NCBI GenBank assembly: GCA_035390665.1
Contig: DAOOUC010000006.1
Coordinates: 17,688-49,687 of the forward strand
Origin: an archaeon
Lineage (GTDB): Archaea > Iainarchaeota > Iainarchaeia > Iainarchaeales > CSSED10-239
Length of the DNA: 32,000 nucleotides
Direction: 5' to 3'
A program made the translations under genes and the position numbers. The notes under the pieces are model-generated. The model searched no databases and had not been told where the DNA came from. It worked only from the letters and a program-made list of their open reading frames with translations. This document shows positions 886 to 32,000 of the stretch, in pieces; within the stretch, counting starts at the first letter, position 1, and each line of letters begins with the position of its first letter.

Positions 886-889
886 TTAA

Positions 890-994: not shown

Positions 995-1013
995 CTTTTA
1001 AAAAAAAGATTCA

Positions 1014-1032: not shown

Positions 1033-1078
1033 TTATATATATTAGTAATCAAGCAATTTTTGTTTTAAATTCTTAGAT

Positions 1079-1150
1079 GGGCTCCTGGCTCAATGGTAGA
1101 GTACTTCCCTTGCACGGAAGGGGTTGCGAGTTCGAGTCTCGCGGAGTCCA
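1079..1150 (+). tRNA. tRNA-Ala (anticodon UGC)
   Basis: Acceptor GGGCTCC/GGAGTCC with G3:U70, anticodon arm CTTCC-CTTGCAC-GGAAG (TGC at 1111-1113), T arm GCGAG-TTCGAGT-CTCGC, discriminator A. Confidence 0.9.
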
Positions 1151-1151
1151 T

Positions 1152-3122: not shown

Positions 3123-4258
3123 TTTAGATTTAATTCTTTTATTATATTGTCGATTATTTTATTTAGAACTTCTTTATTTTTATTAAATTCTTCAGAATTA
3201 TCAAAAATCCACAATTTTCCGTAATTATTTTTTACTATTATTTCTTCTAAATTATTTTTCTTTTGTATATAGTCAAATTGGCTATTTAATCTTCTATCTA
3301 TCTGTTCACTAGTTAGTTTTCTAGAGAATAGTCTTTGTTTTTGAATATCTTTATCTACTTTAACAACTAATACATTATTATTACAAAGATATGTAAGATT
3401 AGATTCTGCAATTAATGCAGCATTAATTATTATGAGTCCTTTTTTACCATATATTTCTTTTCTTAATCTTACTAATATTGGAGTATACATTATTTCATTT
3501 AATTGCTTTAATTTTTCATTATTATTAAATACAATTTCTCCAAGAATTTTGCGATCTATTGTTCCATCAGATTTCTTTATATTTTCTCCAAAAGTTTTAA
3601 TTAATTGATTTCTGATTTTCTCATATTTTTCATCTTTTAATTCAGAGAGAATCTTGTGCCCCAAATGATCTAATTCAATATTGTGTGCCTCTATTCCTTT
3701 TTCTTTACATAGTTCTAAAATTTGTTCACAAACAAAAGATTTCCCACTTCCAATTTCTCCAGTTACTCCTATAATAAACTGATTAGATAATTTTCTTTCA
3801 ATCTCTTGCTTAACATTTAAAGGTACATATTCATGTACAAATCCTTGTTCTTTCTGAATTCCTTTTACTACACTTGAACTTACATGAGCAAGTTCTGGTC
3901 TTGCAAAAAGAATAAAAGTATCAATACCTAATTTTTGACTATCTCCTACTTGATGTAAAATATTTTCATAATCAAAATCAGCAGAATTTCTTACACCTTT
4001 AACTATAACATCTATGTCATTTTCGTAAGCATAATCCACTAAAAGTCCAGAAAAAGAGACTACTTTTACATTATTTAAATCAATTAAGGATTTTTTAGCA
4101 AGAGATAGTCTTTCTTCTAGAGTAAACAAATAATTCTTACTGGGATTTACTCCAATTCCAACAACGACTTTATCAAAAACTTTAGAAGCTCTCTTAATTA
4201 TGTCAATATGTCCAAAAGTAATTGGATCTCCAGAAAATGCATACATTGCTGTTGTCAT
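3119..4258 (-). CDS. coaD/coaE: Bifunctional phosphopantetheine adenylyltransferase / dephospho-CoA kinase (bacterial-type CoaD fused to CoaE)
   Basis: The N-terminal ~160 aa align by eye along their length with E. coli CoaD (AFSGDPITFGHIDIIKRA, VGIGVNPSK..LFTLEERL, VKGVRNSADFDYE, ISSSVVK). The C-terminal ~215 aa carry the CoaE P-loop IGVTGEIGSGKSF followed by ...IELDHLGH. Confidence 0.85.
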   Translation of the reverse strand: MTTAMYAFSGDPITFGHIDIIKRASKVFDKVVVGIGVNPSKNYLFTLEERLSLAKKSLIDLNNVKVVSFSGLLVDYAYENDIDVIVKGVRNSADFDYENILHQVGDSQKLGIDTFILFARPELAHVSSSVVKGIQKEQGFVHEYVPLNVKQEIERKLSNQFIIGVTGEIGSGKSFVCEQILELCKEKGIEAHNIELDHLGHKILSELKDEKYEKIRNQLIKTFGENIKKSDGTIDRKILGEIVFNNNEKLKQLNEIMYTPILVRLRKEIYGKKGLIIINAALIAESNLTYLCNNNVLVVKVDKDIQKQRLFSRKLTSEQIDRRLNSQFDYIQKKNNLEEIIVKNNYGKLWIFDNSEEFNKNKEVLNKIIDNIIKELNLK

Positions 4259-7141: not shown

Positions 7142-7268
7142 CCCTCCTTAGCATAGCGGTTAGTGCGTCCGGCTGTAGACTAAAAGATTACACTCTTTTT
7201 TTGATTGTGGCAATCCACATCAAAAGGCAGTGACCGGAAGATCCCCAGTCCAAATCTGGGAGGAGGGA
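7142..7268 (+). tRNA. tRNA-Tyr (anticodon GUA) with a 54-nt intron at 37/38 (intron about 7179-7232)
   Basis: Acceptor CCCTCCT/AGGAGGG with the archaeal/eukaryal C1:G72 Tyr identity pair and A73. D arm GCAT-AGCGGTTA-GTGC. Anticodon stem TCCGG/CCGGA with loop CTGTAG|...|A (GTA at 7175-7177). T arm CCCAG-TCCAAAT-CTGGG. The splice sites sit in two 3-nt bulges (AG|A and TG|A) separated by the 4-bp helix CTGT/GCAG, which is a bulge-helix-bulge motif. Confidence 0.9.
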
Positions 7269-7302: not shown

Positions 7303-7409
7303 GAGTAACATATTAACTAAATAGTGTTACCTTAAATTTTTTAATTAAATAGTGTATTACTCACTAAAGTGTATTACTCGATACCTTTTTAAATATTTTG
7401 AGTAATACA
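7303..7409 (+). promoter_or_regulatory. Operator-like repeat array upstream of fic (five copies of a TGT(AT)TACTC core in two inverted pairs)
   Basis: GAGTAACA (7303-7310, inverted); AGTGTTACC (7323-7331); AGTGTATTACTC (7351-7362); AGTGTATTACTC (7368-7379); GAGTAATACA (7400-7409, inverted). The last inverted pair brackets the AT-rich TTTTTAAATATTTT (7386-7399), and its right arm overlaps the TTG at 7398. Confidence 0.5.
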
Positions 7410-7415
7410 ATTTAT

Positions 7416-8351
7416 ATGAGCTATTTATCTAAATTACAAAGAAATAATAAAACGTATTATTATCTTGTAGAGAATATTCCTGTGTCAAAAGGAAAAAGAA
7501 AGCAGATAAGAAAATATATAGGAACTGCAAAACCAACAGAGCAACAGTTATCTTTAGAATTATCAAAATTTGAAAACGAAATTAGCCCTAAGAAAAAGCA
7601 ATTGCAAGGATTTACATATTTAACTAAAGACGAAATTAAAGAAATTGATGAGATTAATTCAAATTTTTGGAAGAAATACAATACCTTAACAAAAACAGAA
7701 AAAGAAAGCTTTTGGAATAACTTCATTAGTGTTTTTGTATATAATACCAATTCAATAGAAGGTTCTACTTTAACCTTAAAAGAAGTTGAACTATTATTAT
7801 CTGAAAACATTTCTCCAAATAGACCATTAGAAGATGTATTAGAAACAAAATCTGCTAAAAGAGCAATTGATTATCTTTTAGACTATAAAGAAGATTTATC
7901 TATTGATTTAATAACCGAATTACATAAAATTTACTTTAAAGAAAGCTTTCCAGAGATTGCAGGTAAATTAAAAAGATTAAACAATAGAATAATGGGCTCA
8001 AAATTTGATACCACCCCAAAAGAATTTGTTTTAACTGACTTAAAGATATTTATTGATAATTATAATAAACTAAAAAAAGAACTACATCCAATAGAGCTTT
8101 CAGCTTGGACACATTGGGCTTTTGTTAAGATTCATCCGTTTCAAGATGGTAATGGCAGAATATCAAGATTAATAATGAACTTTGTACTTCACAAAAACAA
8201 ATATGCATTAATTGATATTAAAACCAAAGAAAAGCAAGCTTATTTTAATGCACTTGAAAGATGTAATTATACAAGCAATGGAAAACCATTAGCACAAAGA
8301 TTAGTTAGAAGATTTAAAAAACAATATCAAAATGCTTTTTCAGAACTATAA
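7416..8351 (+). CDS. fic: Fic-domain protein (AMPylase-type, class II with N-terminal inhibitory motif)
   Basis: Canonical active site HPFQDGNGRISR matches HxFx(D/E)GNGRxxR. Upstream TNSIEG matches the (S/T)xxxE(G/N) auto-inhibitory helix motif. ATG at 7416; the ORF track alternative is TTG at 7398. Confidence 0.85.
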   Translation: MSYLSKLQRNNKTYYYLVENIPVSKGKRKQIRKYIGTAKPTEQQLSLELSKFENEISPKKKQLQGFTYLTKDEIKEIDEINSNFWKKYNTLTKTEKESFWNNFISVFVYNTNSIEGSTLTLKEVELLLSENISPNRPLEDVLETKSAKRAIDYLLDYKEDLSIDLITELHKIYFKESFPEIAGKLKRLNNRIMGSKFDTTPKEFVLTDLKIFIDNYNKLKKELHPIELSAWTHWAFVKIHPFQDGNGRISRLIMNFVLHKNKYALIDIKTKEKQAYFNALERCNYTSNGKPLAQRLVRRFKKQYQNAFSEL

Positions 8352-8739: not shown

Positions 8740-9399
8740 ATGGCTCCAGTATCTGTATCTTTTAGAAGACATGCTCAAAAGACAAGAAATGGGCATAGTA
8801 TTACTTCTAATGGAAAAAAAGATGTTAAAGATTTATCAAATAAATTATCAACTACTACAAAACTATATTCTTCTCCTGAAAATAGAACAATAGAAACCGC
8901 AGAATATCTAAAATTATTTACTCACTCAGAATATAATATAAGAGTAAGAAATATTTTACGAGGACATAAATATTTTGCAGGAAAAAGAATTAAAACCACT
9001 AAAAAAGATAATTTTCTAACTTTATTTAAAGACCTGGCTAAAAAGATTGGAATTAATGACAAATTGCTAATTAAGGTGTGGCTATCTGGGAAAGTTCCAA
9101 AAAAGATTGTTCCAAGACCAGAAGTTATTGCTGATGAAATAATAAGAGATAGATTTAGATTACCTAATAGAGTAAAAAACACAGAAAAATCAATAATCTT
9201 TGAAAACATAACACACGATATTGTTATAGCTGCTTTGTTTCAACGATTGTCTGGAGAGAAATATCATAGTCAATTTAAGGATTTACCAAAAGAATTAGAA
9301 TCTTTAAAAGTTGATATTTCAAGAGATGGAAAAGCAACCATGCAATTTAGAAATTATAAAAAAGGAATAACAGAAACATTAAAAGAAATATTAAAATAA
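8740..9399 (+). CDS. Histidine phosphatase superfamily protein (phosphoglycerate-mutase-like)
   Basis: N-terminal FRRHAQKTRNG (RHG-type catalytic motif), SSPENRTIETAEYL (compare the family motif SSPLxRAxQTAE), and a later NITHDIVIAALF (second catalytic His). Confidence 0.55.
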   Translation: MAPVSVSFRRHAQKTRNGHSITSNGKKDVKDLSNKLSTTTKLYSSPENRTIETAEYLKLFTHSEYNIRVRNILRGHKYFAGKRIKTTKKDNFLTLFKDLAKKIGINDKLLIKVWLSGKVPKKIVPRPEVIADEIIRDRFRLPNRVKNTEKSIIFENITHDIVIAALFQRLSGEKYHSQFKDLPKELESLKVDISRDGKATMQFRNYKKGITETLKEILK

Positions 9400-9400
9400 A

Positions 9401-10225
9401 TCATTTTGTTCTATAGATTCTATTTATTATTTCTATCTTCTTATCATAATCTATTGCTGTTTTATAATTATACCAGAAGATATTCATAAAGAAATTAATC
9501 CAAGTATCATCGTATATATCATAAATCAAAGTAATGTCTTTCTCTAATTCATGAAGCTTAAAATTTTTCTCTTCTTTGCTTTCTTTAAAGATAGAATGCC
9601 CACAATCAAATATAATACCTCTTAATGGTTGTAATTGATGCCTTAATTCTATTGATTTAGGATATTTTTGTAATAAAGGCAAAAGAAGATTAATATTTTT
9701 TAAAGTATCTATATCTATTCTTGCAATAATTTTAACTTTTAACCCGTTTTTTATTCTGGTCTCTAATTTATCTATAAGATTCTCATTCTTATATTTAATT
9801 TTAAGAAAAGACAGATTTCCAGATAGAAAATATACAAAATTAGATTTGTCTAGATATTCAAAAATTAATTTTGGATCAAAATCTTCTCCCTTATATAAAT
9901 GTCCATTTGATCTCTCTTTAGAAACATATTGAAAAATTTCCATAAAACTGAAATCTTTCTTATAATTTGTACTTTTTATTTTTGTAAATAAAATATTTTC
10001 TATTTCAGTAGAAGAAACTTTATTAGTTGAATAAACCAGTTTTATAATGTTATATCCTGCTTTTATGTTCTTGATATCAATTAATCCAGTATTCTTTCTA
10101 AACTCGTCTACATATTTCTCTGCAGTTACCCAACTAATTCCTAGTTCTTTAGAAATTTCCTGTATAGTTCTTGGTTCAACTTCTACAAGTTTAATTATTT
10201 CATTTGCTTTTTCTTGTGATATCAT
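9401..10225 (-). CDS. Winged-HTH domain protein, putative transcriptional regulator
   Basis: The N-terminus EPRTIQEISKELGISWVTAEKYVDEF is a typical HTH. The ~200-aa C-terminal domain is unrecognised. Divergent from the radical SAM gene. Confidence 0.55.
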   Translation of the reverse strand: MISQEKANEIIKLVEVEPRTIQEISKELGISWVTAEKYVDEFRKNTGLIDIKNIKAGYNIIKLVYSTNKVSSTEIENILFTKIKSTNYKKDFSFMEIFQYVSKERSNGHLYKGEDFDPKLIFEYLDKSNFVYFLSGNLSFLKIKYKNENLIDKLETRIKNGLKVKIIARIDIDTLKNINLLLPLLQKYPKSIELRHQLQPLRGIIFDCGHSIFKESKEEKNFKLHELEKDITLIYDIYDDTWINFFMNIFWYNYKTAIDYDKKIEIINRIYRTK

Positions 10226-18600: not shown

Positions 18601-19197
18601 GTGAAATATATGAGTAATAAAAACAATATAAAAAAAGAAAACAAATTTAAAATTAATAAAAAACAAGTGTTTTTTGTTGTTCTAATATTGTTATTAATGA
18701 TTTCTGTTTTTGCAATAGTAATCTCTAATAAATCAAAAGTTGTTACACCTACAGAAAATTTAGAAATGAATAATCAAATAATTACTGGAGAAAGCGATAT
18801 TACAGAAACACCAGAAATTAAAACAAACACAATTGGAGTGGATTCAAAACTAGAAGACTTCTATGGTAAACCTTCATTAATTGTTTTTGCAGGCACTTAT
18901 TGTGGACATTGTGTAAAGATGATTCCAGAACTTGAAAAAGAAATATGGAATAGATATAGACTAGAAGCAAATATTTGGGTAAATGTTATTGACGGTTCAA
19001 CAGGTAAAAGATTCGATGTTAAAGATATTGCACAAGGATATAATCCTAATTTAGAATATGATAAGATAATGGGCGATTGTTCTTATGTTCCAGCTTATGT
19101 TGTTCTTGATAAAGATGGCAAACAAATCTTAAGATCCTGTGGTTCTGAAAAAACAATTACAGAAATAAAGCAAGCAATTGATAGTCAATTAAACTAA
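18601..19197 (+). CDS. Membrane-anchored thioredoxin-fold thiol-disulfide oxidoreductase (TlpA/ResA-like)
   Basis: An N-terminal TM, then a thioredoxin-like domain with FAGTYCGHCVKM (CxxC). GTG at 18601 or ATG at 18610 as start. Confidence 0.7.
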   Translation: MKYMSNKNNIKKENKFKINKKQVFFVVLILLLMISVFAIVISNKSKVVTPTENLEMNNQIITGESDITETPEIKTNTIGVDSKLEDFYGKPSLIVFAGTYCGHCVKMIPELEKEIWNRYRLEANIWVNVIDGSTGKRFDVKDIAQGYNPNLEYDKIMGDCSYVPAYVVLDKDGKQILRSCGSEKTITEIKQAIDSQLN

Positions 19198-21109: not shown

Positions 21110-24100
21110 TTATTTTTTCTTAGAATAGATTAACATAAATCCAATTAATATTATGCTTATATACATTACAAACAGTATTTTATTTTCAGGAGTTAAAGGC
21201 ACATTTAGACCATTTCCACTAGCCCCGCCACTTCCTGAGCCTATATTAAATACATTGTTTCCAGGATTTCCTGTAACTTGCCCGTTTGGATTAACAGCAA
21301 AAGTTACCCCATCTTTAAATTGATCATTAAATGGAATTAAATTACCATTTGTTGTATACCAATTACCTGTTTCTGGATCATACCAAAAAGACCCGTTCTT
21401 TCCTTGAGCAGAAAGTAAGGTTTCTTTTTCTCCATTGTAAGTAACCTTTGGAACTCCCTCTTCAGCACTAAATCCAAATTCATGTGTTTTTCCATCATCA
21501 GTTTTAACAATTAAACCATTTGGTGTTTGTTGAACAGAGGTTATTTTTGTATCTGTTACTTCTCCTGTTACTTTATCAATAATCTTTAATCTTTGTTCAC
21601 ATTCTGGTGGGTCACTTACATAGAAAATAAATGTTTTTGTTTCAGTATCAAACATTTTAAATGGTCCGACTTTTTCAAATGCTTTGTTTAGTTTATCAGT
21701 ATTTGCTTTTGCTTGATCATTGTCTTTCTCAGGAGATACATTAAATTTTAATCCTATTTCTTCAGTATCATCACAACCATTTGTTGCTTTTTCTTTAATT
21801 AATTCTGTTTTTAATTTTTCAATGTCATTTCCATGTGTTGCCGTTGTTGTTTCTACCCACATGATATATGCCTTTCTTTCTTCAACATAAACTAATTGTC
21901 CTCTTTCAAATTGCAAAGCAACATTTTGTCCAATAGTTATTTCTCTAGTATCTACTGGACTAATAGATGTCATTCTATTTCCTAAAATTACTGCTTTAGC
22001 ATTACTTCCGTTAGTTATATATCTTGGTATTCCTTCGGCCATTATCTGTGTTCCTTGAGGTTTTAACATATAGTTTGTTGCAGGATGAATTGTATTCCCT
22101 AATTTTACAGCACCTAAATATTCTGTTAGATTTGCTGCATTAGATGGTATTGTAAGTCCTGTCTGTGCTTCATAACCTGCTCTTAGACAATCAAAGAAGT
22201 CTGCATTTTTTACAGACAGATTACCAAAGGTATCAATTTCAAATAATGGTTCTGTATTATTTGGAACAGGAATATAACTTAAACTTCTTGGAACAACTTT
22301 AGCAGGAATTGCAAGATTTGTTCCTATAATTCTCACAAAATCTTTATTTTCTTGTCCAATAATTGTTTTTAAATTTCCATTTGCATCAACTACAGTCATT
22401 TCTCCTTTTTCTTTATCGATTGTAAGAGTTATATTTGTGTCTTTATCTACTAGATTTTCAACACCTTTGTCATTATAACCAATAGCATTACACTTGGTTC
22501 TTGGACCCATCTCAAAGAAAAACATTTGTCCTATTATTGTGGAATCTGTTTGTCCACTTGTTCTATATGTTGCTTGAACAATAGGGTTTTCTTTTAGTTT
22601 TTGTTCTGCAAAATCCTTTATTTGTTCTGCACCAAACTTTACTCCTTTTTCTAATTCTGTACCTTCTGTTACTTTAGATACAGCTTCTTCAACTTTTGTG
22701 ACTCCGTCTTTTACTGCTTCACCAACTTTATTTTTTGAATCTTTTGTAACTCTTTCTGATTCTACAGACGAAACAAAGAAGTGTGCATATGTTCCTTCTT
22801 CGTCATCAACACAATTATGTAATTCAGGCATAATTAAAAACATTTGAGGAACATCACTTGCAAGTGCTGGTGCTAAAAATGAACTAAAATATCCTGATGC
22901 TGGAAATACTAAGTATGCTAAATGTTGTTGAGTAACTAAAGCACCCGCAAATCTATGATTTCTCATTGATTTAGGAACTGCTTTACCAATGGACATACCT
23001 GCTAAAGTTAATGATTCTATTTTTTGAGAACAAGTTTCTTCATTTTCTCTTGCAGCTAAAAGGTTAATTGCTTTATCTGTTGTTTGATTAGAAAAGGTTC
23101 CATCATAATCTGTATGATGTGAAAAAGTAATAATTGTTTGCCCTTGCTTCTTATAATTCTCTTCAGAAGTATTTTCTAAAATATAATTCAAAGTGTTAAT
23201 GCTTGGTGGAGTAGATGTTGTTATAGTTATTTGATTTAAAGAAATACTTGGTCGATAATTTTCTGTTTTTTTAGTTTCTGGAACAGTTGTTTCTTCTTTT
23301 GCTGTTTCTGCTTCTTTTGAAGTGCCATCCTCTGTAGTTTCTTCTTTTATTGTTTCTATAGGTGTTTCTTCTGTAACAATTGTTGGAAGCTCTGGCGAAT
23401 TTTCAACTTCTTTTTCTGCATCTGTTTTTTCTGGTTCAATCATTCCAACTTCCATTAACATAGAAGCATTTCTTGTTTCTTGATTAATATATTCTGCACC
23501 TACAACATAATTACATTGATCAATACATGCATTATCTAGATTATTAGTTACAAGAACAATATCGTCTGTTTTAGATCTTCTAATTTGGCCTTCAGTTACT
23601 TTCTTTAAAACATTATTTAAAGACTGTGCCCAATCTGCTGTAATTGTCCCTGTAATTTCTTTTGCTAAGTAATTAGACCAGTTAAGTCCTGAATTTAAAA
23701 ATTGCATAAAAAGATCTCCTTGATCTGATCCTTCATTTGCAAAGAAATCAACATACGCATCTTCATAAATTTTTTGAGTAGCTCCGTGTTTGATATGGAA
23801 AGCAGAATAACTTTCAGGTAATTGATACATAGAATATTTGGTTAATCCAAACGTATCTCCAAATAATGTTGCACCACCGGTTTTAAATTCCCAATATGCA
23901 AAATTAATTCCAAACGCCATTGGATTTTGAGTAAGTAATCTTTGATATGCAGCACCATTATATGTTCTCATAAACTGATTTAAAGTATCTCTTCCTCTTC
24001 CGCTCACCCATTCTTTATTACTCATTGTGGTAAAAACTTCATTGAAACTTTTTGCAGTATTATCAAACTTTGTTGGAACATTATCCATTACTTGTTTCAT

Positions 24101-26233
24101 TGTTTCAAGTGGATCTAAATCATAATATCCTTTACCATATACATCACTGATCTTTTTACCTGTTGCTTTATCAATATAATCATCAACAAATTGAGTTGTA
24201 GTTTTTGGATAAAAATCAATGTCTGTTGCAACACCAGTATATTTTGCTGGATCCCAATCAATTGATCTTATTTCTTTAAATGTTTTATCACTTACATCAA
24301 AATATCTTATATATCCATTTGGATAATTATCAACATAATTTTGTACATCAGATAATTTTACTTTCTTTACTACATTAGATGGATCTGGACCTTGAACAAC
24401 AGTTCTTATTCTTTTTGCAGAAATTGGGGTTCCATCAGCTAAAGTAACAGTAACATTTTGTGTTTGAAGACCTCCTGATCCTTTTATATCATAACCTGTT
24501 GCTGTTTTCTTATATCTAAAAGCATCAAAATCTTCTCCAAATGGTTTATTTTCTTGTATAAGTTTTCCTGTGGTGTGACCGTCTGTTGATTTATAAACAT
24601 TTAAGTTATCAAAATCACCATAAGTTCTTGCACTTACTACAGAAGAATCTTCATATCCGGATTTCCATTTAAATGTCTTAAATGTTGCAATATCATAAGA
24701 ATCTGCAAGTCTTGAAGCAGTATATGCTGCATCAGTATAGGCATCTAATTGTGCTTTTGTTAATTTCTTATATGCTTCAGTTATTGGCAATCCATCAGCA
24801 ACAACTTTATCAATAGTGTTCTTTGCTGCCAAAAAATCAGGAGTAATCATTTTAGATTTTAATAATGCATTAGCAGAATATACTCTGTCTCCAAAAATTT
24901 GAGCAACATCTGTTGCTGCTCTTCTTTGTGCTTTAGATAATTTATAACTATCATTAGCAATGCTTTTTAATGCAAAGCCAGAAGTCTCTCCCATACCTTT
25001 TTGAGTATTACCTAATAAATCTGTTGTGAATTCTTGTATATTATAATTCTGAATATCTCTTTTTGTTAGATTAGAAAGAGGTTCCATTTTCTGTGTAATA
25101 AATTTATCAACATCACTTTTTGCAAATCTTCCAGCATCTAATGATTTTTTTATTCTACCAAAAGGATCTTGAACAAACAACGCAGGATCTTTTGTTAAAG
25201 TATCTAAAAATCCACCCTCTTTAATTATTCCTTTCTTCTTTAAATAATCATAAGGTTTTGTTAATGTTTTTTTTATTGAAGGATGATTTGCAATTCTTGC
25301 CATTCCATTATAAATAAAAGGACTTGTTGCACTATAAACCATGTCTACAGAAAAATATTGATTAAACATCTTGTCAAATAAAGTATAGGTATTAATATAA
25401 CAGTTTTCTCCTCTACAAGTTGTTTGCATACTTACAGAAAAATTATTAGTTATTGTAGTGTTCTTTACTGCTTTATCTTTTGTAGCAGTCCATAATTCTG
25501 TATCTATTGCATTTTGATCATTTGATTCCATTGTACTTAAATATGTGTTTAGTTCAGTATTTGTAATATCAGAAAATGCACCTAAATTTTCAGTATATGA
25601 CTTATTTTCATCTTTATTACTATCAATATTAATTGTTTCTTTAATTGCTTGAATTGCATCTTTACCTACAACTCCAACTTCTTTAAAAAATCCGGTAATG
25701 TCATTTTTTCTATATTGTCCAACATCTGTTAAATAACATTGACTATCATTATCTTTTCCAGTACATCTTCCCACTCTTAATGTATCTTTTAAATTTAAAC
25801 CCATTTCATAAGGGCCATAACAAGACTGTCCTAATATTGTTGGTGTTTCTAATGGATTCATTAATTTTGATGGAATTTCTTGCTTTATTGCAAGATCTCC
25901 TGCTTTTGCATTAGGATCTGTAAGAAGAATATTATTTTGATCTAGTGTTTGCCTATTATTATTTGCGGCTTGATCAGACGTTATTTCATCTGCAGAAAAA
26001 CCTTTAGTTAATATCTCTTTCCATAAAGCATTAACTGAACTTTCTGGAAGTTCAACAGTTGCACAACCATTTCCACGATCAAAAATTTCTTTTTGTTCTT
26101 GTGGTTGTGAATCTGCAAAATAAAGTGTATCAGAATTATTTAATCTATCAAAATCAACACCAGATGCAAATATACTATTGCAAAAAAGTATTAAAAAGAA
26201 AATCATTATTGCGTTTTTTGTTTTTGAATTCAT
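21110..26233 (-). CDS. Giant (1707 aa) secreted, C-terminally membrane-anchored surface protein of unknown family
   Basis: An uninterrupted 5.1-kb ORF. Sec-type signal peptide MNSKTKNAIMIFFLILFCNSIFA|SG. A C-terminal Gly/Ser/Asn-rich linker (GSGSGGASGNG), then TM ILFVMYISIILIGFMLIY and KKK. A central Glu/Thr/Pro-rich linker. Many N-x-S/T sequons. No catalytic or known adhesin motif recognised. Confidence 0.8.
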   Translation of the reverse strand: MNSKTKNAIMIFFLILFCNSIFASGVDFDRLNNSDTLYFADSQPQEQKEIFDRGNGCATVELPESSVNALWKEILTKGFSADEITSDQAANNNRQTLDQNNILLTDPNAKAGDLAIKQEIPSKLMNPLETPTILGQSCYGPYEMGLNLKDTLRVGRCTGKDNDSQCYLTDVGQYRKNDITGFFKEVGVVGKDAIQAIKETINIDSNKDENKSYTENLGAFSDITNTELNTYLSTMESNDQNAIDTELWTATKDKAVKNTTITNNFSVSMQTTCRGENCYINTYTLFDKMFNQYFSVDMVYSATSPFIYNGMARIANHPSIKKTLTKPYDYLKKKGIIKEGGFLDTLTKDPALFVQDPFGRIKKSLDAGRFAKSDVDKFITQKMEPLSNLTKRDIQNYNIQEFTTDLLGNTQKGMGETSGFALKSIANDSYKLSKAQRRAATDVAQIFGDRVYSANALLKSKMITPDFLAAKNTIDKVVADGLPITEAYKKLTKAQLDAYTDAAYTASRLADSYDIATFKTFKWKSGYEDSSVVSARTYGDFDNLNVYKSTDGHTTGKLIQENKPFGEDFDAFRYKKTATGYDIKGSGGLQTQNVTVTLADGTPISAKRIRTVVQGPDPSNVVKKVKLSDVQNYVDNYPNGYIRYFDVSDKTFKEIRSIDWDPAKYTGVATDIDFYPKTTTQFVDDYIDKATGKKISDVYGKGYYDLDPLETMKQVMDNVPTKFDNTAKSFNEVFTTMSNKEWVSGRGRDTLNQFMRTYNGAAYQRLLTQNPMAFGINFAYWEFKTGGATLFGDTFGLTKYSMYQLPESYSAFHIKHGATQKIYEDAYVDFFANEGSDQGDLFMQFLNSGLNWSNYLAKEITGTITADWAQSLNNVLKKVTEGQIRRSKTDDIVLVTNNLDNACIDQCNYVVGAEYINQETRNASMLMEVGMIEPEKTDAEKEVENSPELPTIVTEETPIETIKEETTEDGTSKEAETAKEETTVPETKKTENYRPSISLNQITITTSTPPSINTLNYILENTSEENYKKQGQTIITFSHHTDYDGTFSNQTTDKAINLLAARENEETCSQKIESLTLAGMSIGKAVPKSMRNHRFAGALVTQQHLAYLVFPASGYFSSFLAPALASDVPQMFLIMPELHNCVDDEEGTYAHFFVSSVESERVTKDSKNKVGEAVKDGVTKVEEAVSKVTEGTELEKGVKFGAEQIKDFAEQKLKENPIVQATYRTSGQTDSTIIGQMFFFEMGPRTKCNAIGYNDKGVENLVDKDTNITLTIDKEKGEMTVVDANGNLKTIIGQENKDFVRIIGTNLAIPAKVVPRSLSYIPVPNNTEPLFEIDTFGNLSVKNADFFDCLRAGYEAQTGLTIPSNAANLTEYLGAVKLGNTIHPATNYMLKPQGTQIMAEGIPRYITNGSNAKAVILGNRMTSISPVDTREITIGQNVALQFERGQLVYVEERKAYIMWVETTTATHGNDIEKLKTELIKEKATNGCDDTEEIGLKFNVSPEKDNDQAKANTDKLNKAFEKVGPFKMFDTETKTFIFYVSDPPECEQRLKIIDKVTGEVTDTKITSVQQTPNGLIVKTDDGKTHEFGFSAEEGVPKVTYNGEKETLLSAQGKNGSFWYDPETGNWYTTNGNLIPFNDQFKDGVTFAVNPNGQVTGNPGNNVFNIGSGSGGASGNGLNVPLTPENKILFVMYISIILIGFMLIYSKKK

Positions 26234-26244
26234 TTATTTCACTT

Positions 26245-26769
26245 TTACATATATATTAAATATAAAATTATAACAGGTAATTTGGGGAAAACAAGTAATA
26301 CAAATGCAATTATTACAAATAAAACAAATGTAAAACTTTTCCAAAGATTAAAGAAAGACAATCCTTGTTCTTTTTTCTTTTTTATTTTTGTTTTCTTGGA
26401 TTTAGTTAAATTATCATAAATCAAAGAAATGAACATTCCTATAATTAAGACTATTGCAGAGAATAATGCAGAAATAATAATTAATCTAGCTAAATGGAAT
26501 AAAATAAAACCAATAGCATCTAAAAATGTAAATTCTGAAAATTTACTTAATATTGGGATAAAATATAAAAATATTAAAATAACATAATTTAGGATAAAAA
26601 CACACAAAAACAAGGACAATACAAAATTATATTTTTTATTAAACCTTAAAAATAAACCCTTAAAAGCATAAGTTACGCCAATAAATGGCAAAGAGATTAT
26701 TGCTGAAAATAAAAATAATTTAATAAAAACCCAAACATAATTTAATATTGTTGCAAAAAATCCTGCCAT
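26245..26769 (-). CDS. Polytopic membrane protein, co-oriented 11 nt upstream of the giant surface-protein gene
   Basis: 174 aa with about 5 TM segments and a KSKKTKIKKKKEQG loop. The 11-nt gap to the next start implies co-transcription. Confidence 0.6.
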   Translation of the reverse strand: MAGFFATILNYVWVFIKLFLFSAIISLPFIGVTYAFKGLFLRFNKKYNFVLSLFLCVFILNYVILIFLYFIPILSKFSEFTFLDAIGFILFHLARLIIISALFSAIVLIIGMFISLIYDNLTKSKKTKIKKKKEQGLSFFNLWKSFTFVLFVIIAFVLLVFPKLPVIILYLIYM

Positions 26770-26863
26770 TTTATCACTTTTTAATTCTAAAATATAATAT
26801 ATATATTAACATTATATTTTTAAATATTATATACTACTACATTTATGTAAGAAAGTGAAAAAT

Positions 26864-27574
26864 ATGGACGTAGATTTAAAAAATATCAAAAGAAGAGAAC
26901 GAAGATTCTATAGAACCTATAATGATAATGGGGAAATTAAATATGTTGATAAACAAACAAAAACCCCAGAATCAGTAACTGTACAAAAATCAGAAGATAT
27001 TAAAATTAAACAAACAGAAGAAAAGAGTAAGGAAATTAATACTCAAGACAAAAAAGAAATAATAGATAAGATACTTTTCGAAATGAATAAAAGCATAAAT
27101 CCTAATATTGATGAAATTTCGGAAGTCATTTATTCTCAATTAACTAATAATAATATTGAGGTTAGTCAAGAAACAGTAAAACATGTAGTTGAAGAAAATG
27201 CTCATGTGAGAAGATCAAGAAGACAAGAAGACAAGGCCGAATCAAAAGAAGGTTTTGATTATTTAAATGATAGAAAAGAAATGGAACTTGTTTTAGATAA
27301 TATTGTAGAAGAAAATATAAAAGAACAAACAAGAGAAAAAAATAAACCTAAAATTGAAAAACCTGTTATTGAGAAAAAAACAGAAACTCATTCTAGAAGA
27401 GATAAAAAACCTGAAGAAAAAACAAAAGTTGAAGAGAAACCTGAAAAGAAAAAAGAAGATACTTCTAAAACAAAAACCAAAGTCAAAAAAGAAGAAGAAT
27501 TTAAATTAGATTTTGGAGATGAAGATTCTGAAGTAGATGATCAATCAGATGACGATTTAGGACTTAAATTTTAA
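26864..27574 (+). CDS. Highly charged Lys/Glu-rich protein with an acidic C-terminal tail
   Basis: ATG at 26864 (the ORF track extends to GTG 26855). No TM segment. Low-complexity KPEEKTKVEEKPEKKKED, ending in DEDSEVDDQSDDDLGLKF. Its stop overlaps the stop of the convergent gene within TTAA (27571-27574). Confidence 0.55.
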   Translation: MDVDLKNIKRRERRFYRTYNDNGEIKYVDKQTKTPESVTVQKSEDIKIKQTEEKSKEINTQDKKEIIDKILFEMNKSINPNIDEISEVIYSQLTNNNIEVSQETVKHVVEENAHVRRSRRQEDKAESKEGFDYLNDRKEMELVLDNIVEENIKEQTREKNKPKIEKPVIEKKTETHSRRDKKPEEKTKVEEKPEKKKEDTSKTKTKVKKEEEFKLDFGDEDSEVDDQSDDDLGLKF

Positions 27575-28350
27575 TTAGTTACTTCTTCACAATTTAATAA
27601 ATCTAAATCATCTGGATTTATATCTGTTGTTGCTGGCCAGATTGCAAATGTTGCAATTGTTAAAAATTCTCTTTGTTCTGAAGCAGAGGATGTATATTTT
27701 ATAAAACTTAAAGGAACAGATGAAGAAAAAATTGTCGGAGATTTAGAAATTATTGATCTAACTTGTGAATATCCACCTTCTGGATCACAAAGATAATAAG
27801 TTTCTGGTTCATATGGATTTACAGAACAACTCATTGTTTTTGTCGGACCAGAAATACTTGTACATTGAAAATTTGTTAACTTAATCATAAAATAAAAAAA
27901 AGTATCATTATTCTGTGTTTGATCATAAAGATAAAATACATAATCGTGAGACTTTAAAGGATACATTGTTGCTTTCACTGTGTGGAATAAATTATATTTA
28001 GCAATATCATTATAGGTTGTTCCTAAAGTATTTATGTCTGTTGATCCAATTTTTCCATCAGCATAAAAATCCTGTTTTATTTGAGTCATTAAATAATCCG
28101 TTTCTCTTGCTTGACGAATATCTAAATTAAAATCTAAAGGAACAGATGTATAAAAGATTGTTCTTAATACTGAGTTTGTGTAATCTTTAAAATAAAGATC
28201 ATTTGATGCTTTTTCAATTCTTGTTCCGTATGTTGATGAATATCTAAATAACAATACAGATAAAGTTACAATTATTAATAAGAAAAATAAAGCATCTGTA
28301 ATTGCGGCTTGGCCTTTTTTACTTTTTAATTTATTTCCAAATTGTAACAT
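27571..28350 (-). CDS. Pilin-like secreted protein with class III signal peptide (259 aa)
   Basis: N-terminus MLQFGNKLKSKKG|QAAITDALFFLLIIVTLSVLLF: a basic leader, KG then Q, and a hydrophobic helix. Cys-containing globular domain. The start overlaps the upstream gene by 20 nt. Confidence 0.7.
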   Translation of the reverse strand: MLQFGNKLKSKKGQAAITDALFFLLIIVTLSVLLFRYSSTYGTRIEKASNDLYFKDYTNSVLRTIFYTSVPLDFNLDIRQARETDYLMTQIKQDFYADGKIGSTDINTLGTTYNDIAKYNLFHTVKATMYPLKSHDYVFYLYDQTQNNDTFFYFMIKLTNFQCTSISGPTKTMSCSVNPYEPETYYLCDPEGGYSQVRSIISKSPTIFSSSVPLSFIKYTSSASEQREFLTIATFAIWPATTDINPDDLDLLNCEEVTN

Positions 28351-28834
28351 ATAACCACGCTGGCTCTACATAATATTCTTGTTGAACTGTAATAGGATAT
28401 CTATAAACAATAACTTCTTTTGTCATTAATACTGATGTTAAAGTATCAATATCTGTATTTCCACAGAAGAAAACCTTATCTGGACTTTCCCAATGTATTA
28501 TTAATGCATCTTCTGTAATGTCATTTACCTCAAAAACGTCATAATTTTCGGTGTTTAAATCTAAGGGCAAAGCAAAAGCTGTCCAATTGTATTTTGTATC
28601 CACTTTTGTACAGGTTTTAGAAAATGCATTATAGTCTGAAAATAATGGATCTTCTTTTATTATTCCAGAAATATTTATTGCATCATTTTTTAAAGAATAA
28701 TAATCTGTATTATTTCTATAAACATTATATGTACTTAAAAATACAGAAAAAAATATAGTTATACCTAAAAATATTGGAATTAAACTAGGGAGATCATCTC
28801 CTATTGCTCCTATATATCCTTTTTTATTTAACAT
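28331..28834 (-). CDS. Pilin-like protein (167 aa), divergent class III signal peptide
   Basis: MLNKKG|YIGAIGDDLPSLIPIFLGITIFFSVFL. In an operon with the flanking pilin-like genes. Confidence 0.55.
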   Translation of the reverse strand: MLNKKGYIGAIGDDLPSLIPIFLGITIFFSVFLSTYNVYRNNTDYYSLKNDAINISGIIKEDPLFSDYNAFSKTCTKVDTKYNWTAFALPLDLNTENYDVFEVNDITEDALIIHWESPDKVFFCGNTDIDTLTSVLMTKEVIVYRYPITVQQEYYVEPAWLYVTIWK

Positions 28835-28838
28835 ATTA

Positions 28839-29528
28839 TCAACTTATGGGTATAGTGTTTGGCTCTACAAACAAATCAGGAATTGCATTTAGACAAAGTA
28901 TTTTTTGTTTTAAATCTTCTTCGACTAAGAAATTCTTACATTGATAAATTCCATTTTTCTTTAAACATGGAATTAAATAAATATTGGGAATTCCATTTTC
29001 TATTTTTTTAATAAATAAAATAGTTGTATCAATTGAACTTGCTTTTAATGGATCATAATTTACAGAAAAATTGGTATCATTTAATTTTATTTCACAACCG
29101 GTATTATTTGTACAATCAGATTCATAAAAATAAACATTTCCATTATAATCTATATCATAAGCAGCATAAATTTTTGGTTTGTATGATTTTCTATCAATTA
29201 TTGCTAACACTATTTTTTTTTGTTCGCTTCCTATGTCTGTATTAGTAGTAAAATTATGAGCTGAAACATTTAATTTATAATTTATACTAAATGCATCTGA
29301 TCCACCTGAGTTAGTATAAATCTTTTTAGGAATATCAATAAATTTTACTGTACAATAGCTATTACTTTCTATTCCAACTTTTAATTCTTTCCCGATTTTA
29401 TAAACTAATTCATAGCTTTGTCTTATTTTCATATTTGAATTTACTGCGCCCATAAAGAAAACAACAATTGCTGCAACAGCAGTAACAAAAATTAAAAGAT
29501 TTAATTTAGATAGAGCAAATTCAATCAT
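28839..29528 (-). CDS. N-terminally anchored Cys-rich extracellular protein (229 aa), pilin-operon member
   Basis: MIEFALSKLNLLIFVTAVAAIVVFFMGAV has a hydrophobic helix but no KG leader. Six or more Cys in the globular part. It lies 2 nt from the upstream gene. Confidence 0.55.
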   Translation of the reverse strand: MIEFALSKLNLLIFVTAVAAIVVFFMGAVNSNMKIRQSYELVYKIGKELKVGIESNSYCTVKFIDIPKKIYTNSGGSDAFSINYKLNVSAHNFTTNTDIGSEQKKIVLAIIDRKSYKPKIYAAYDIDYNGNVYFYESDCTNNTGCEIKLNDTNFSVNYDPLKASSIDTTILFIKKIENGIPNIYLIPCLKKNGIYQCKNFLVEEDLKQKILCLNAIPDLFVEPNTIPIS

Positions 29529-29530
29529 AA

Positions 29531-30130
29531 TTATATCCTATTTTTCTTTAAAAAACACATTTTACGGGACGCACCATAATCTTGTGAAGATCCAATCATA
29601 TATAATCTGTATTTTCCAGAAGTTATATTTGTTGAGATATTTGTGTCTGAAACTAAAGACCAATTTTCATATTCTGAATCTGTACTTATTATACAATTAT
29701 CTTTATATGTTTCATACTCTATGGCTGTTGGTAATTCAACACACAATGGTTGTATTGGCATATTTCTAGTTTTGCCATCATCATAAACATATTCTAGAAG
29801 AGTACATGTTTGTCCACCACCACAAAAAGCAGCACATCTTGTTGGACTTGCATATGTTTTAAGTGTTATTTTTTCAAACTTTTGATTAAAGCAAGGTCTT
29901 ACATCAAAACTAAGATTTTTTACTGTTAAATCAGAACCTAAAACTACATCTTTGATTGCTTCTTTAAACTCACTTAGTTCTTGTCTTTTATCTCCGATAC
30001 AAGTATTTTCAGAAAGATTAGTTAAAGCCCAAGTTCCTGCAACAATAACAAAACCCATAAGTATAACAGCGACTAAAACTTCAAAAGGAGCACTAGCTTG
30101 GCCTTTATTATTCATGCTAAATATATTCAT
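29531..30130 (-). CDS. Pilin-like secreted protein with class III signal peptide (199 aa), Cys-rich
   Basis: MNIFSMNNKG|QASAPFEVLVAVILMGFVIVAG. About 10 Cys (NTCIG, RPCF, TRCAAFCGGGQTC, PLCVE, NCII, KMCF). Confidence 0.7.
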   Translation of the reverse strand: MNIFSMNNKGQASAPFEVLVAVILMGFVIVAGTWALTNLSENTCIGDKRQELSEFKEAIKDVVLGSDLTVKNLSFDVRPCFNQKFEKITLKTYASPTRCAAFCGGGQTCTLLEYVYDDGKTRNMPIQPLCVELPTAIEYETYKDNCIISTDSEYENWSLVSDTNISTNITSGKYRLYMIGSSQDYGASRKMCFLKKNRI

Positions 30131-30175
30131 ATTAGAAGAAATAATAGAAAAAGAATTTAAAAAGGAATTGTTTTT

Positions 30176-30418
30176 TTATTGTGTAGAAGTTGTTGGAGTA
30201 TTTGCTACCGTATTATTATTTGTAGCAACTCCTTGATTAGGAAGACTAGCAACATTTTGTTGATACTTCATAGACTTGTTAAACATAGGTTTAATTAAAG
30301 CAATAAGGACTATGCCCACTATTGCAACAATAATAAGCATATATAGAGTAGAAGCCCCATCTGCTTGAGCCCTATTATCCCTTAAAAGTTTTTTAAACTC
30401 TTGCTTTAATTTATTCAT
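30176..30418 (-). CDS. Small pilin-like protein (80 aa), candidate major fibre subunit
   Basis: A basic leader ...LLRDNRA|QADGASTLYMLIIVAIVGIVLIALI, then a short Asn/Thr-rich tail (ATNNNTVANTPTTSTQ). The size and layout resemble small archaeal major pilins (UPF0333/MMP1685-like). Tentative. Confidence 0.5.
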   Translation of the reverse strand: MNKLKQEFKKLLRDNRAQADGASTLYMLIIVAIVGIVLIALIKPMFNKSMKYQQNVASLPNQGVATNNNTVANTPTTSTQ

Positions 30419-30430
30419 AGTTTTTCAAAT

Positions 30431-30976
30431 TTATGCTGATTTTTTTGCATAGATTAAACATAATGTTTCGTCTGTTATCTCTGATTTAGATGAAATGTCT
30501 ATATTACTAATTCTTTGATATGAATTATTTGAAGCATATGTTTCTTTTATAGTTTCTAATCCAGAATATCCTTCTTCAGAACAAACAATACAAACAGCAA
30601 TTCTTTTATCAGATGCGCCTGTATATGTAAGTATTGAATTACCTATTACTTGAAAATTCTCTACATTATCATATTCATTGCTTACTAATACCTGATATTG
30701 ACTTAAACCCGTATTCTTGACCATTGCTTCTGCACCAATAGATGTAGATCTTTTGAATTTGATTGCATCTGTACAATTAATTACACCTGGATAATTTAAT
30801 TGATTTTTTAATAAATTATTAGTTACTTGATCTGGTTTATCTGTACCAATATCTAATCCACCAATAACAGATATTAAAACTCCAAGTATTGCTAAAGCAA
30901 CAATTGCAGCAATTAATAACTGAAATGTTGAGGATGCTTGTCCTTTCTTATTTAATTTAAACATTTTTCTTTTCAC
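30431..30976 (-). CDS. Pilin-like secreted protein with class III signal peptide (181 aa), 4-Cys domain; paralog of 31045..31890
   Basis: MKRKMFKLNKKG|QASSTFQLLIAAIVALAILGVLISV. Its C-terminal domain shares NYPGV.NCTD, FKR, KNTGL, YTG, VCI.CS and ETLCL.Y.KK with the next gene. Confidence 0.75.
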   Translation of the reverse strand: MKRKMFKLNKKGQASSTFQLLIAAIVALAILGVLISVIGGLDIGTDKPDQVTNNLLKNQLNYPGVINCTDAIKFKRSTSIGAEAMVKNTGLSQYQVLVSNEYDNVENFQVIGNSILTYTGASDKRIAVCIVCSEEGYSGLETIKETYASNNSYQRISNIDISSKSEITDETLCLIYAKKSA

Positions 30977-31044: not shown

Positions 31045-31890
31045 TTATGCTTTCTTTGGATAAACTAAACACAAGGTTTCTCGTTCTATATTTGAATCAA
31101 TAACCGTAGTTATTCCATATTCCTCCATTGCTTGCTGTAATCCGGTTTTTCCATTATCTGAACAAATAATACATACTTCCACATTCTTGTTTGAAGATCC
31201 CGTATATTTTAATATTTGTGAATTGGTTGATTCAAATCCTATCAAATTATCTAGATTATTTAAATATACTTGTGTGTTATCCAGCCCAGTATTTTTAATA
31301 ATGCTTTCTGCTATTAGAGAACTATTTCTTTTAAAAGTTACTTTGTCTGTACAATTTTCTACACCTGGATAATTAATTTGTTGTCTTAATAATTGTGCAG
31401 TATATACTGTCGGATTTTGACTACGTCTACTTGGTGCAGGCAATTGAGCTGAAATAATAAATAAAAGTAATAAACATGCTGTAATTATTAAAGATAAATT
31501 TACTTTGTGTTTATATACTCTTACTGATTTATTTTCTAACTTTTGTTCTAAGTCTTTATTGAATAAAGCAATAAATTCATAAATTACAGAAATAAATAGA
31601 ATTACTATAGCAAATAAAATACATATGCTTCCAAGATAAAAAACAAAAGGAACTAAATCATTTAATCCATTTGGAATATTAATTCCAAGAATCAATATAA
31701 TAAGAAATAATATTGGTAGACTTGCCATTATTAAAATTCCAATTATAATTTTAGTATTATATTTGTTATACTCTTCTTGAGATTCTTTAGGATCTTCTTT
31801 TTCTTCAGTTTTAGATATATTATTTTGTTTTTCAATAACAGAATCTAAATATTCTTCATCTTCTTTTTTTTGATCCTTCATTTTTTTCAC
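31045..31890 (-). CDS. Membrane-anchored paralog of the 4-Cys pilin domain (281 aa), with a charged N-terminus plus 3 TM instead of a class III signal peptide
   Basis: The C-terminal ~130 aa are homologous to 30431..30976 and include an identical 15-nt stretch (31360-31374 = 30782-30796, encoding NYPGV). The N-terminus has an acidic ~45 aa followed by three hydrophobic helices. Confidence 0.7.
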   Translation of the reverse strand: MKKMKDQKKEDEEYLDSVIEKQNNISKTEEKEDPKESQEEYNKYNTKIIIGILIMASLPILFLIILILGINIPNGLNDLVPFVFYLGSICILFAIVILFISVIYEFIALFNKDLEQKLENKSVRVYKHKVNLSLIITACLLLLFIISAQLPAPSRRSQNPTVYTAQLLRQQINYPGVENCTDKVTFKRNSSLIAESIIKNTGLDNTQVYLNNLDNLIGFESTNSQILKYTGSSNKNVEVCIICSDNGKTGLQQAMEEYGITTVIDSNIERETLCLVYPKKA

Positions 31891-31922: not shown

Positions 31923-32000
31923 CTAATATCCACCAATTATTAACAAAATTAAAATCACAAAGATAATTGAAAATATCAATTTAAACCAAATATTTGAAAT
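31923..32000 (-). CDS. 3' end of an upstream minus-strand gene (hydrophobic C-terminus; rest outside the window)
   Basis: The reverse strand reads ISNIWFKLIFSIIFVILILLIIGGY* in an open frame from the window edge to the stop at 31923-31925. It is co-oriented with the pilin operon, 32 nt upstream of it. Confidence 0.35.
   Translation of the reverse strand: MSNIWFKLIFSIIFVILILLIIGGY

Follow-up and report, generated by a model that had tools for sequence, protein, structure and literature searches.

Besides the ATPase, TadC and pilins, archaeal type IV pilus (T4P) loci encode further components (Makarova, Koonin & Albers 2016, PMC4858521), including large proteins with conserved cysteines and a C-terminal transmembrane helix that were called S-layer-like proteins or adhesins, such as arCOG05471 (Thermoproteales) and the large proteins from Pyrobaculum/Thermoproteus systems (PMC4858521). 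Clade 1 archaeal T4P comprise major pilins of ~70 amino acids (aa), five or more minor pilins, further membrane proteins and large 'PilY-like' proteins with a DUF2341 domain, and the Mia14 genome paper describes a T4P system of the clade 1 group that is shared by Micrarchaeota. SLP_Mh, the S-layer protein of Ca. Micrarchaeum harzensis, is a PF05123 protein of 101 kDa and the most abundant protein of the cell, and a structural survey lists MSTP-like S-layer proteins in Micrarchaeota (873-978 aa) and Iainarchaeota (A0A2G9N319, 1039 aa, Diapherotrites archaeon). Here, we describe a 32,000-nucleotide stretch of an Iainarchaeota contig (DAOOUC010000006.1; the whole stretch is called the window below), which encodes a predicted 1707-aa surface protein (the giant) and, directly upstream, a 174-aa polytopic membrane protein (p174) in the neighbourhood of a T4P-like gene cluster.

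How DPANN archaea attach to other cells and exchange material with them is poorly understood, and hardly any of the participating proteins have been identified. We propose that p174 and the giant are probably a conserved module accessory to a type IV pilus-like apparatus of DPANN archaea, in which the giant would act as a contact protein or an envelope scaffold. This proposal builds on gene order across the giant loci, over all of which we ran one hidden Markov model (HMM) per cluster component, each made from four or five orthologs. In 36 of the 40 loci whose flank is long enough, a p174 homolog is located on the same strand less than 2 kb upstream of the giant gene, in line with the proposal of an earlier sequence-only reading of this DNA that p174 is a dedicated partner. 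At least three of four pilin-like genes lie upstream of the giant in 27 of 30 loci, and their order is identical wherever it was compared (26/26). The adjacent pilin operon noticed in the sequence-only reading is thus borne out by class III-like N-termini in 27571..30976 (-) and by synteny across more than 40 loci.

The giant protein family

The open reading frame (ORF) of the giant spans 21110..26233 (-), stop included, and that of p174 spans 26245..26769 (-), 11 nt upstream on the same strand, as the sequence-only reading had placed them. The window has a GC content of ~26% and archaeal gene content, including a probable intron-containing tRNA. A word-indexed search of 5.8 billion proteins recovered 30 full-length homologs of the giant (1663-1772 aa, 38-99% identity) and a further, more distant relative of 1561 aa whose architecture is the same from end to end. 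Run against 1.84 billion representatives, a profile built on the C-terminal module matched 202 clusters at E<=1e-3 and 103 clusters at E<=1e-30, and nearly all matched members are 1200-1770 aa long and carry the module at their C-terminus. Furthermore, 64 giant loci were found in GTDB species genomes, two of which are complete. The protein had been taken for an orphan, a view that these homologs overturn, and every member of the family is annotated as a hypothetical protein.

The 64 loci are labelled Candidatus Iainarchaeum, Diapherotrites, 'ainarchaeum' or Forterrea, and the source names of distant family members add Candidatus Micrarchaeota. The nearest relatives make an Iainarchaeota-type DPANN archaeon the most likely source of the window. 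Among the genomes and sequences searched, the family is single-copy and confined to Iainarchaeota and Micrarchaeota. Dozens of independent assemblies, the two complete genomes among them, show the same two-part architecture, which excludes the assembly chimera that had been considered earlier. No relatives were identified in IMG/VR viral contigs or phage records, and a viral or mobile origin was therefore rejected; the genes surrounding the giant loci are housekeeping genes. A stand-alone version of the C-terminal module was also rejected, as the candidate (P0070) is cut by a contig end. A search with the Micrarchaeota relative P0176 for a link to cultured Micrarchaeota gave two proteins only, and the giant family is not mentioned in the literature on Forterrea, Mia14, A_DKE and ARM-1.

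Two contigs with a giant gene (L054, L065) belong to metagenome-assembled genomes (MAGs) labelled Chloroflexi/Chloroflexota, most likely as a result of binning error. One MAG (DAOOON01) has two giant loci, L011 and L032, with ~65% identity to the query. The L032 frame is split into two ORFs, which could reflect a frameshift or pseudogene, a strain mixture or an assembly error.

Hydropathy analysis of the giant revealed exactly two strongly hydrophobic segments, aa 5-29 and aa 1683-1706. The first ends in NSIFA/SG (the slash marking the predicted cleavage site) and reads as a Sec-type signal with n-, h- and c-regions, in which NSIFA is conserved in the family alignment; the second is the C-terminal transmembrane helix, which is preceded by a Gly/Ser/Asn spacer (~aa 1655-1677) and followed by SKKK. 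This agrees with the topology deduced in the sequence-only reading, as does the acidic linker that divides the protein (aa ~931-1004; 24% Glu, 19% Thr, 8% Pro). The sequence supports a protein that is Sec-exported and tethered by a single C-terminal transmembrane helix, with the KKK tail inside and ~1650 non-repetitive residues outside. The giant lacks a class III prepilin signal (KG/Q motif) and carries its Sec-type signal instead, unlike its neighbours p181, p199 and p259. The parts of the protein are as follows.

26165..26233 (-): signal peptide, aa 1-23, MNSKTKNAIMIFFLILFCNSIFA/SG, with the cleavage site predicted from sequence
25334..26164 (-): N-terminal conserved region, aa 24-300, with six conserved Cys, five of them invariant and C273 present in at least 90% of members
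24014..25333 (-): fast-evolving central region, aa 301-740, helical bundle and beta domain
23459..24013 (-): second conserved region of the N-terminal half, aa 741-925, with the acidic loop DAYVDFFANEGSDQGDLF and the Cys pair C903, C907
23204..23458 (-): acidic Thr/Glu/Pro-rich linker, aa ~926-1010, defined by composition
22304..23203 (-): part 1 of the C-terminal module (C1), aa 1011-1310, with amphipathic helices at ~aa 1165-1215
21284..22303 (-): part 2 of the C-terminal module (C2), aa 1311-1650, membrane-proximal beta-rich domains with the signature SAQGKNGSFWYDPETGNWY
21113..21283 (-): spacer, juxtamembrane motif GLNVPLTPE, transmembrane helix and KKK tail, from hydropathy and motif comparison

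Conservation was assessed in an alignment of 23 full-length family members and follows a gradient along the protein. C2 is the most conserved part (54-91% identity across homologs, 54-60% in the most distant full-length ones), followed by aa 24-300 (43-79% and 43-48%, respectively), in which aa 271-300 form the most conserved stretch of the N-terminal region. Identity in the most distant full-length homologs is 34-46% for aa 741-925, a region also conserved in the distant homolog P0031, and falls to 18-21% for aa 301-740. The linker is not conserved in sequence and varies in length from 28 to 116 aa. In the mature protein, 13 Cys are invariant and C273 is found in at least 90% of members, and long invariant motifs are present in the alignment. 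With P0176, BLAST-level similarity is confined to the last ~140 residues of the ectodomain, which contain the C2 signature, and C1 is not conserved; being the only part common to P0176, the juxtamembrane domain is the deepest-conserved element of the giant.

C1 also contains a cluster of polar residues (window 23117-23122, aa 1039-1040, and 22781-22813, aa 1141-1151, both (-)), of which H1039, C1141, D1143, E1146 and H1151 are invariant even in P0031 and H1040 is nearly so. Together with the conserved acidic loop D825-D840 (DAYVDFFANEGSDQGD, window 23714-23761 (-)), this cluster could represent a metal-binding or catalytic site.

The consensus GFNIPL[T/A/S]PE directly precedes the transmembrane helix in all family members, and the combination of juxtamembrane motif, transmembrane helix and basic tail formally has the three-part design of LPXTG or PGF-CTERM sorting signals. 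The motif (IPLTPE type) was found on no unrelated ORF in ~1.1 Mb of related loci; a new C-terminal sorting signal was rejected, as the combination is confined to the giant family in the sequence sampled. Likewise rejected was an enrichment of glycosylation sites: the sequons described earlier as many number 19, compared with 18.7 +/- 3.8 expected from shuffling.

A 99%-identical relative differs from the giant at 14 scattered, mostly conservative sites, so the strain-level hypervariability that had been suggested as a check was rejected. The next nearest relative (79% amino acid identity) is probably saturated at synonymous sites in this genome of 26% GC. In comparison with three relatives, divergence of the giant matches that of the pilin-like genes next to it (41-55% identity) and exceeds that of the adjacent LysRS gene (63-82% identity). 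No internal repeats were detected when ten segments were aligned all against all with HHalign (maximum probability 12%).

Neither the giant (E<=0.1) nor p174 matched any Pfam or NCBIfam model, six distant family members had no Pfam match, and phmmer and profile searches against PDB sequences returned nothing for the giant. S-layer domains (PF05123, PF07752, TIGR01564/01567) and an MSTP-like beta-sandwich were not found by Pfam, NCBIfam, PDB profiles or Foldseek, and these searches also gave no match to a characterised S-layer or enzyme family; such a match had been named in advance as one that would refute the sequence-only reading. The absence of PGF-CTERM, cadherin/Ig-like and beta-helix motifs noted from sequence inspection was upheld by Pfam, NCBIfam and HHalign: there was no match to PGF-CTERM or any other NCBIfam CTERM model, with the C-terminus reading GLNVPLTPE, transmembrane helix, SKKK, and no tandem adhesion domains (Ig-like, PKD, cadherin, CARDB, LamG, beta-helix) were detected by Pfam and HHalign. 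DUF2341 is absent by Pfam.

The giant was modelled with AlphaFold2 (AF2) in two pieces (aa 24-925 and aa 1005-1685), with 28 aligned sequences for each. Confident models were obtained for a helical bundle and beta domain at aa ~313-738 (predicted local distance difference test, pLDDT, 80-94) and for a beta-rich region at aa ~1314-1634 (pLDDT 85-95); the polar cluster and the acidic loop both lie in regions that were modelled poorly. In Foldseek searches of the PDB, the C-terminal half retrieved propeller look-alikes only, whose TM-scores of 0.07-0.15 and root-mean-square deviation (rmsd) of ~20 A indicate no real propeller fold match, and the N-terminal half retrieved nothing below E=0.6. TM-scores were at most 0.11 in the BFVD viral library, and no class I, II or III fusion-protein fold was matched in BFVD or the PDB (TM-score <= 0.15) with these partly confident models.

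The pilus-like gene cluster

The protein p174 contains 4-6 hydrophobic segments, so the five transmembrane helices assigned to it earlier are plausible, within that range. It has a Lys-rich loop (aa ~121-133) and shares 20-52% identity between loci, and none of its Cys, His, Asp or Glu residues is invariant; it thus looks like a structural partner rather than an enzyme. Upstream of the p174-giant pair, six ORFs have prepilin-like N-termini, consisting of a short basic stretch, K-G/Q and ~20 hydrophobic residues, and the pilin-like proteins are Cys-rich. The genes between p174 and the window edge, and their counterparts elsewhere, are listed below.

26855..27574 (+): 239-aa Lys/Glu-rich soluble protein, divergently transcribed, N-terminal motif RRERRFYR
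27571..28350 (-): pilin-like p259, class III-like N-terminus KKG/QAAITDALFFLLIIV…, ortholog profile matches
28331..28834 (-): pilin-like p167, KKG/YIGAIGDDLPSLIPIF…, ortholog profile matches
28839..29528 (-): pilin-like or N-terminally anchored p229, from its N-terminus and ortholog profile matches
29531..30130 (-): pilin-like p199, NKG/QASAPFEVLVAVILMGF…, 8 Cys, ortholog profile matches
30176..30418 (-): small pilin-like protein of 80 aa with a Thr/Asn-rich tail, candidate for the major pilin
30431..30976 (-): pilin-like p181, KKG/QASSTFQLLIAAIVALAIL…
31045..31890 (-): 281-aa membrane protein with an acidic N-terminus, 3 transmembrane helices and a C-terminal domain that is a paralog of p181's globular domain
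31923..32000 (-): 3' end of an upstream membrane-protein gene, cut by the window edge
L027 3719-4480, L040 5714-6505, L046 4887-5771 and L057 5147-6121, all (-): opposite-strand proteins with the N-terminal RFYR motif in other loci

The paralogy between the 281-aa protein and p181 (…QINYPGVENCTD… and …QLNYPGVINCTD…, respectively) is also seen in HMM cross-matches, and corresponds to a pilin head domain fused to a polytopic anchor. The size of the 80-aa protein fits the ~70-aa major pilins of clade 1 archaeal T4P. The opposite-strand counterparts of the 239-aa protein begin with VPRRLKRFYR or VPRRMKRFYR, and this protein seems to be a conserved member of the cluster and is probably cytoplasmic. 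As it lies on the opposite strand between the p174-giant pair and the pilin-like genes, the pair constitutes its own transcription unit.

In relatives with longer contigs (L001, L003, L004), the cluster is headed by a gene for a ~750-aa polytopic T2SSF-like protein, and repeated weak T2SSF (TadC/FlaJ) matches over the same profile region suggest that these proteins are TadC-like platforms. The platform gene is present in 15 of the 26 giant loci whose flank reaches 7 kb, and the relatives suggest that it lies beyond the edge of the window. In a variant locus (L034 1312-12121; also L031), genes for a T2SSE ATPase, a T2SSF-like platform, one pilin-like protein, a p174 homolog and the giant are contiguous, and the other pilin-like genes are absent from the 7 kb upstream. 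The ATPase of L034 (760 aa) matches PF00437 with 61 bits, above the curated Pfam cutoff. The arrangement extends to Micrarchaeota: in L006, the platform protein matches the Iainarchaeota profile at E=1e-166 and is accompanied by the same six pilin-like genes, with the same order and N-terminal motifs, and then by a giant that shares the membrane-proximal domain. A distant 1246-aa family member is also located among T2SSF/T2SSE genes. L006 contains toxin-antitoxin pairs (UPF0175/DUF3368 and MazE/PemK) inside its pilus cluster (2815-3578, 9315-9934), one of them directly before the giant gene.

On the other side of the giant, three genes away (past LysRS and a 78-aa ORF), the window encodes a 198-aa protein with an N-terminal transmembrane helix and a thioredoxin-type CGHC motif (18601-19197 (+)); a protein at the same position in L001 has a faint Thioredoxin_2 match. 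It could serve as an extracytoplasmic thiol-disulfide oxidoreductase for the Cys-rich giant and pilin-like proteins.

Elsewhere, the window contains three tandem tRNA-Ala genes that are ~91% alike (679-1151 (+); anticodons CGC, AGC and TGC), and the sequence does contain the AGC anticodon (loop CT-AGC-AC). Such an A34 tRNA-Ala is unusual in archaea, where GGC is the norm. A small ORF with a GLUG motif lies beside this array (128-613 (+)). A 127-nt Rfam tRNA match (7142-7268 (+); 48 bits), which ARAGORN did not call, is probably an intron-containing archaeal tRNA. Furthermore, the window encodes a fused cytidylyltransferase-like and dephospho-CoA kinase protein (3119-4258 (-)) and a Fic-domain protein with a coiled-coil N-terminus (7398-8351 (+)).

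Possible roles of the giant and alternative explanations

In the proposed mechanism, the p174-giant pair would be the distal part of a T4P-like cluster specific to the Iainarchaeota/Micrarchaeota branch, with the order ATPase (in some genomes), TadC-like platform, small pilin of ~70 aa, at least five minor pilin-like proteins, p174 and the giant. The conserved membrane-proximal beta-rich module and the juxtamembrane motif may keep the giant at or next to the pilus machine, with docking probably occurring through its partner p174, and the acidic spacer of variable length could push the N-terminal half outwards, where the fast-evolving helical and beta region might meet an outside target such as a host cell, a particle or the S-layer. 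This would make the giant either a contact protein (adhesin) associated with the pilus or a scaffold in the envelope on which the filament relies. We infer both its physical association with the pilus machine and p174 and its adhesive or scaffold role; the host binding suggested in the sequence-only reading is a reasonable candidate role, and the link to the pilin genes is supported. Between adhesin and filament envelope scaffold, the evidence leans slightly towards a machine-associated role over that of a classical variable adhesin, as the giant is single-copy, non-repetitive and strongly conserved.

Several observations weigh against this proposal. Gene linkage is not proof of physical association, and the pilin-like proteins were identified by N-terminal motifs and context rather than by family models. 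The Micrarchaeota member P0163 is not adjacent to pilus genes, and in the window and close relatives the opposite-strand gene separates the p174-giant pair from the pilin-like genes. No characterised pilus component, adhesin or scaffold was matched by homology or by fold. Finally, aa 24-300, 745-925 and 1005-1250 were modelled poorly although they are among the most conserved regions, possibly because splitting the protein for modelling removed inter-domain contacts.

Alternative explanations have to be considered for a protein of this size and topology. A lattice-forming S-layer protein, as had been suggested earlier, is not supported, and we regard it as highly improbable: the giant is large, secreted and C-terminally anchored with conserved Cys, some archaeal S-layer proteins are anchored likewise (PMC4858521) and archaeal S-layer families are hard to detect from sequence, but Pfam, NCBIfam and PDB profiles revealed no S-layer domain, there was no fold match, and repeated beta-sandwich or Ig-like domains are lacking. 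Moreover, other proteins hold this role in both phyla, as Micrarchaeota, which also encode a related giant, use the abundant SLP_Mh, and the 1039-aa S-layer protein of the MSTP-like family is already listed for Iainarchaeota. The single-copy state of the giant, strong purifying selection on its membrane-proximal part and its fixed synteny with pilus genes also contradict a lattice function. Instead, the giant might be an S-layer membrane stalk or anchor with SlaB-like function, or a scaffold spanning the pseudo-periplasm, with an incidental pilus neighbourhood. The C-terminal transmembrane helix, the spacer, the amphipathic helices at aa ~1165-1215 and the high conservation would fit such a function, the Micrarchaeota S-layer protein has no clear anchor, so that its authors propose a second, transmembrane-containing stalk protein, and the pseudo-periplasm is 20-25 nm wide. 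This alternative is conceivable but unlikely, since many lineages of DPANN archaea and methanogens have MSTP-like S-layer proteins while the giant was found only in Iainarchaeota and Micrarchaeota, the linkage to the T4P core is tight, including the contiguous ATPase-platform-pilin-p174-giant locus, and PDB searches gave no match to SlaB or any other chain.

The pilus genes themselves allow a different reading, in which the giant would be a PilY1-like pilus-tip adhesin, cleaved off its anchor and carried on the filament by minor pilins. Like PilY1, it has a Sec signal and an operon-like arrangement with minor pilin-like genes, large 'PilY-like' proteins are predicted in clade 1 T4P loci, the C-terminal beta region has weak propeller-like 3Di matches in Foldseek, and the conserved juxtamembrane motif is a putative processing site. 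We nevertheless consider it very unlikely, as the giant has no DUF2341 domain, the propeller matches are poor in both TM-score and rmsd, PilY1 has no C-terminal transmembrane anchor, the motif occurs on no other protein of the sampled loci and no sortase- or archaeosortase-like gene was seen nearby. The invariant residues of the polar cluster and the acidic loop, located in conserved and poorly modelled regions, together with a conservation higher than expected of a simple adhesin, could point to an extracellular enzyme anchored in the membrane, such as a metal-dependent hydrolase that attacks polymers of the host envelope. However, these residues could equally bind structural Ca2+ or Zn2+, C1 is not conserved in the Micrarchaeota relative, no enzyme family was matched by Pfam, NCBIfam, PDB profiles or Foldseek and the giant has no classical catalytic motif such as HExxH, which renders an enzymatic function improbable. 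Barely plausible is a protein for cell-cell fusion or cytoplasmic bridges, built like class I viral glycoproteins from a half that binds a receptor, a linker and a fusion half close to the membrane. The large beta-rich domain between helices and transmembrane anchor is unlike class I proteins, the linker is variable, nearly absent (28 aa) in some homologs and devoid of a conserved cleavage site, and no fold similarity to BFVD viral proteins or PDB fusogens was found, although the architecture is two-part with a transmembrane anchor, helices follow a conserved stretch of moderate hydrophobicity (aa ~1095-1135), the conserved regions gave poor models, which can also happen with metastable proteins, and DPANN archaea make intimate host contacts.

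A more far-reaching reading, which we regard as a long shot, is that the giant, p174 and the fixed pilin-like set constitute a DPANN-specific cell-contact organelle, in which the giant would oligomerise in the pseudo-periplasm as a symbiont-host docking or portal structure with an unseen fold. The micrarchaeon ARM-1 has a ~21-nm barrel-shaped complex of unassigned identity beneath the S-layer where host nanotubes enter (PMC11329633), and this complex is one candidate for such a portal. The family is confined to one branch, single-copy and without fold relatives, and its most conserved regions resist monomer modelling, which makes this reading compatible with the data.

With the accessory pilus module as the favoured explanation, an apparent orphan has become a defined family of ~200 clusters that is single-copy and pilus-syntenic in two DPANN phyla and for which a domain map is available, and the tempting annotation as an S-layer protein is removed. 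The family offers a concrete surface-contact candidate, with likely partners, for work on Micrarchaeota co-cultures or Iainarchaeota-rich samples. If the giant is merely an accessory adhesin, this is a useful annotation rather than new biology.

Comparison with known systems

SlaB and the Staphylothermus tetrabrachion resemble the giant in their C-terminal transmembrane anchor, helical segment, beta domains and long extracellular reach. Unlike in these systems, the giant has no sequence or fold match to PDB chains and no sign of oligomeric coiled-coil stalks, and its genomic partner is a pilus cluster rather than an S-layer gene. With the MSTP-like S-layer proteins (SLP_Mh, A0A2G9N319), it shares only the general nature of a large secreted envelope protein from the same kinds of organism; the MSTP-like proteins differ in their PF05123/MSTP-like beta-sandwich domains, their length of ~870-1040 aa and their high abundance.

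Like PilY1, the giant is large, Sec-exported and genetically coupled to a minor-pilin set, and its conserved acidic loop could bind calcium. It differs from PilY1 in having no propeller fold match (TM-score <= 0.15) and no vWA or DUF2341 domain, and in its C-terminal transmembrane anchor. The cluster as a whole resembles clade 1 T4P of the Methanococcus Epd type, with a small pilin, at least five minor pilin-like proteins, a TadC-like platform, membrane proteins and a large surface protein. In contrast to clade 1 T4P, the large protein lacks DUF2341 and has a membrane anchor, one ~750-aa protein of weak T2SSF similarity makes up the platform, and the ATPase gene is usually not adjacent.

The giant is unlike the predicted arCOG05471-type proteins in its restriction to Iainarchaeota and Micrarchaeota, its length of 1350-1770 aa across the family, its non-repetitive sequence and its dedicated polytopic partner of ~170 aa. 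It resembles the S-layer-like proteins of archaeal T4P loci (PMC4858521) in its position in or at the end of a T4P cluster, its signal peptide, its C-terminal transmembrane helix and its conserved Cys, and the giant loci resemble those loci, compared by description only, in their minor pilin sets and additional small membrane proteins. Large surface proteins that are anchored and whose genes accompany archaeal pilus genes are a kind that was predicted before (PMC4858521), and the giant family itself is new: a previously undescribed family of the Iainarchaeota/Micrarchaeota branch, distinct from all family models and folds searched.

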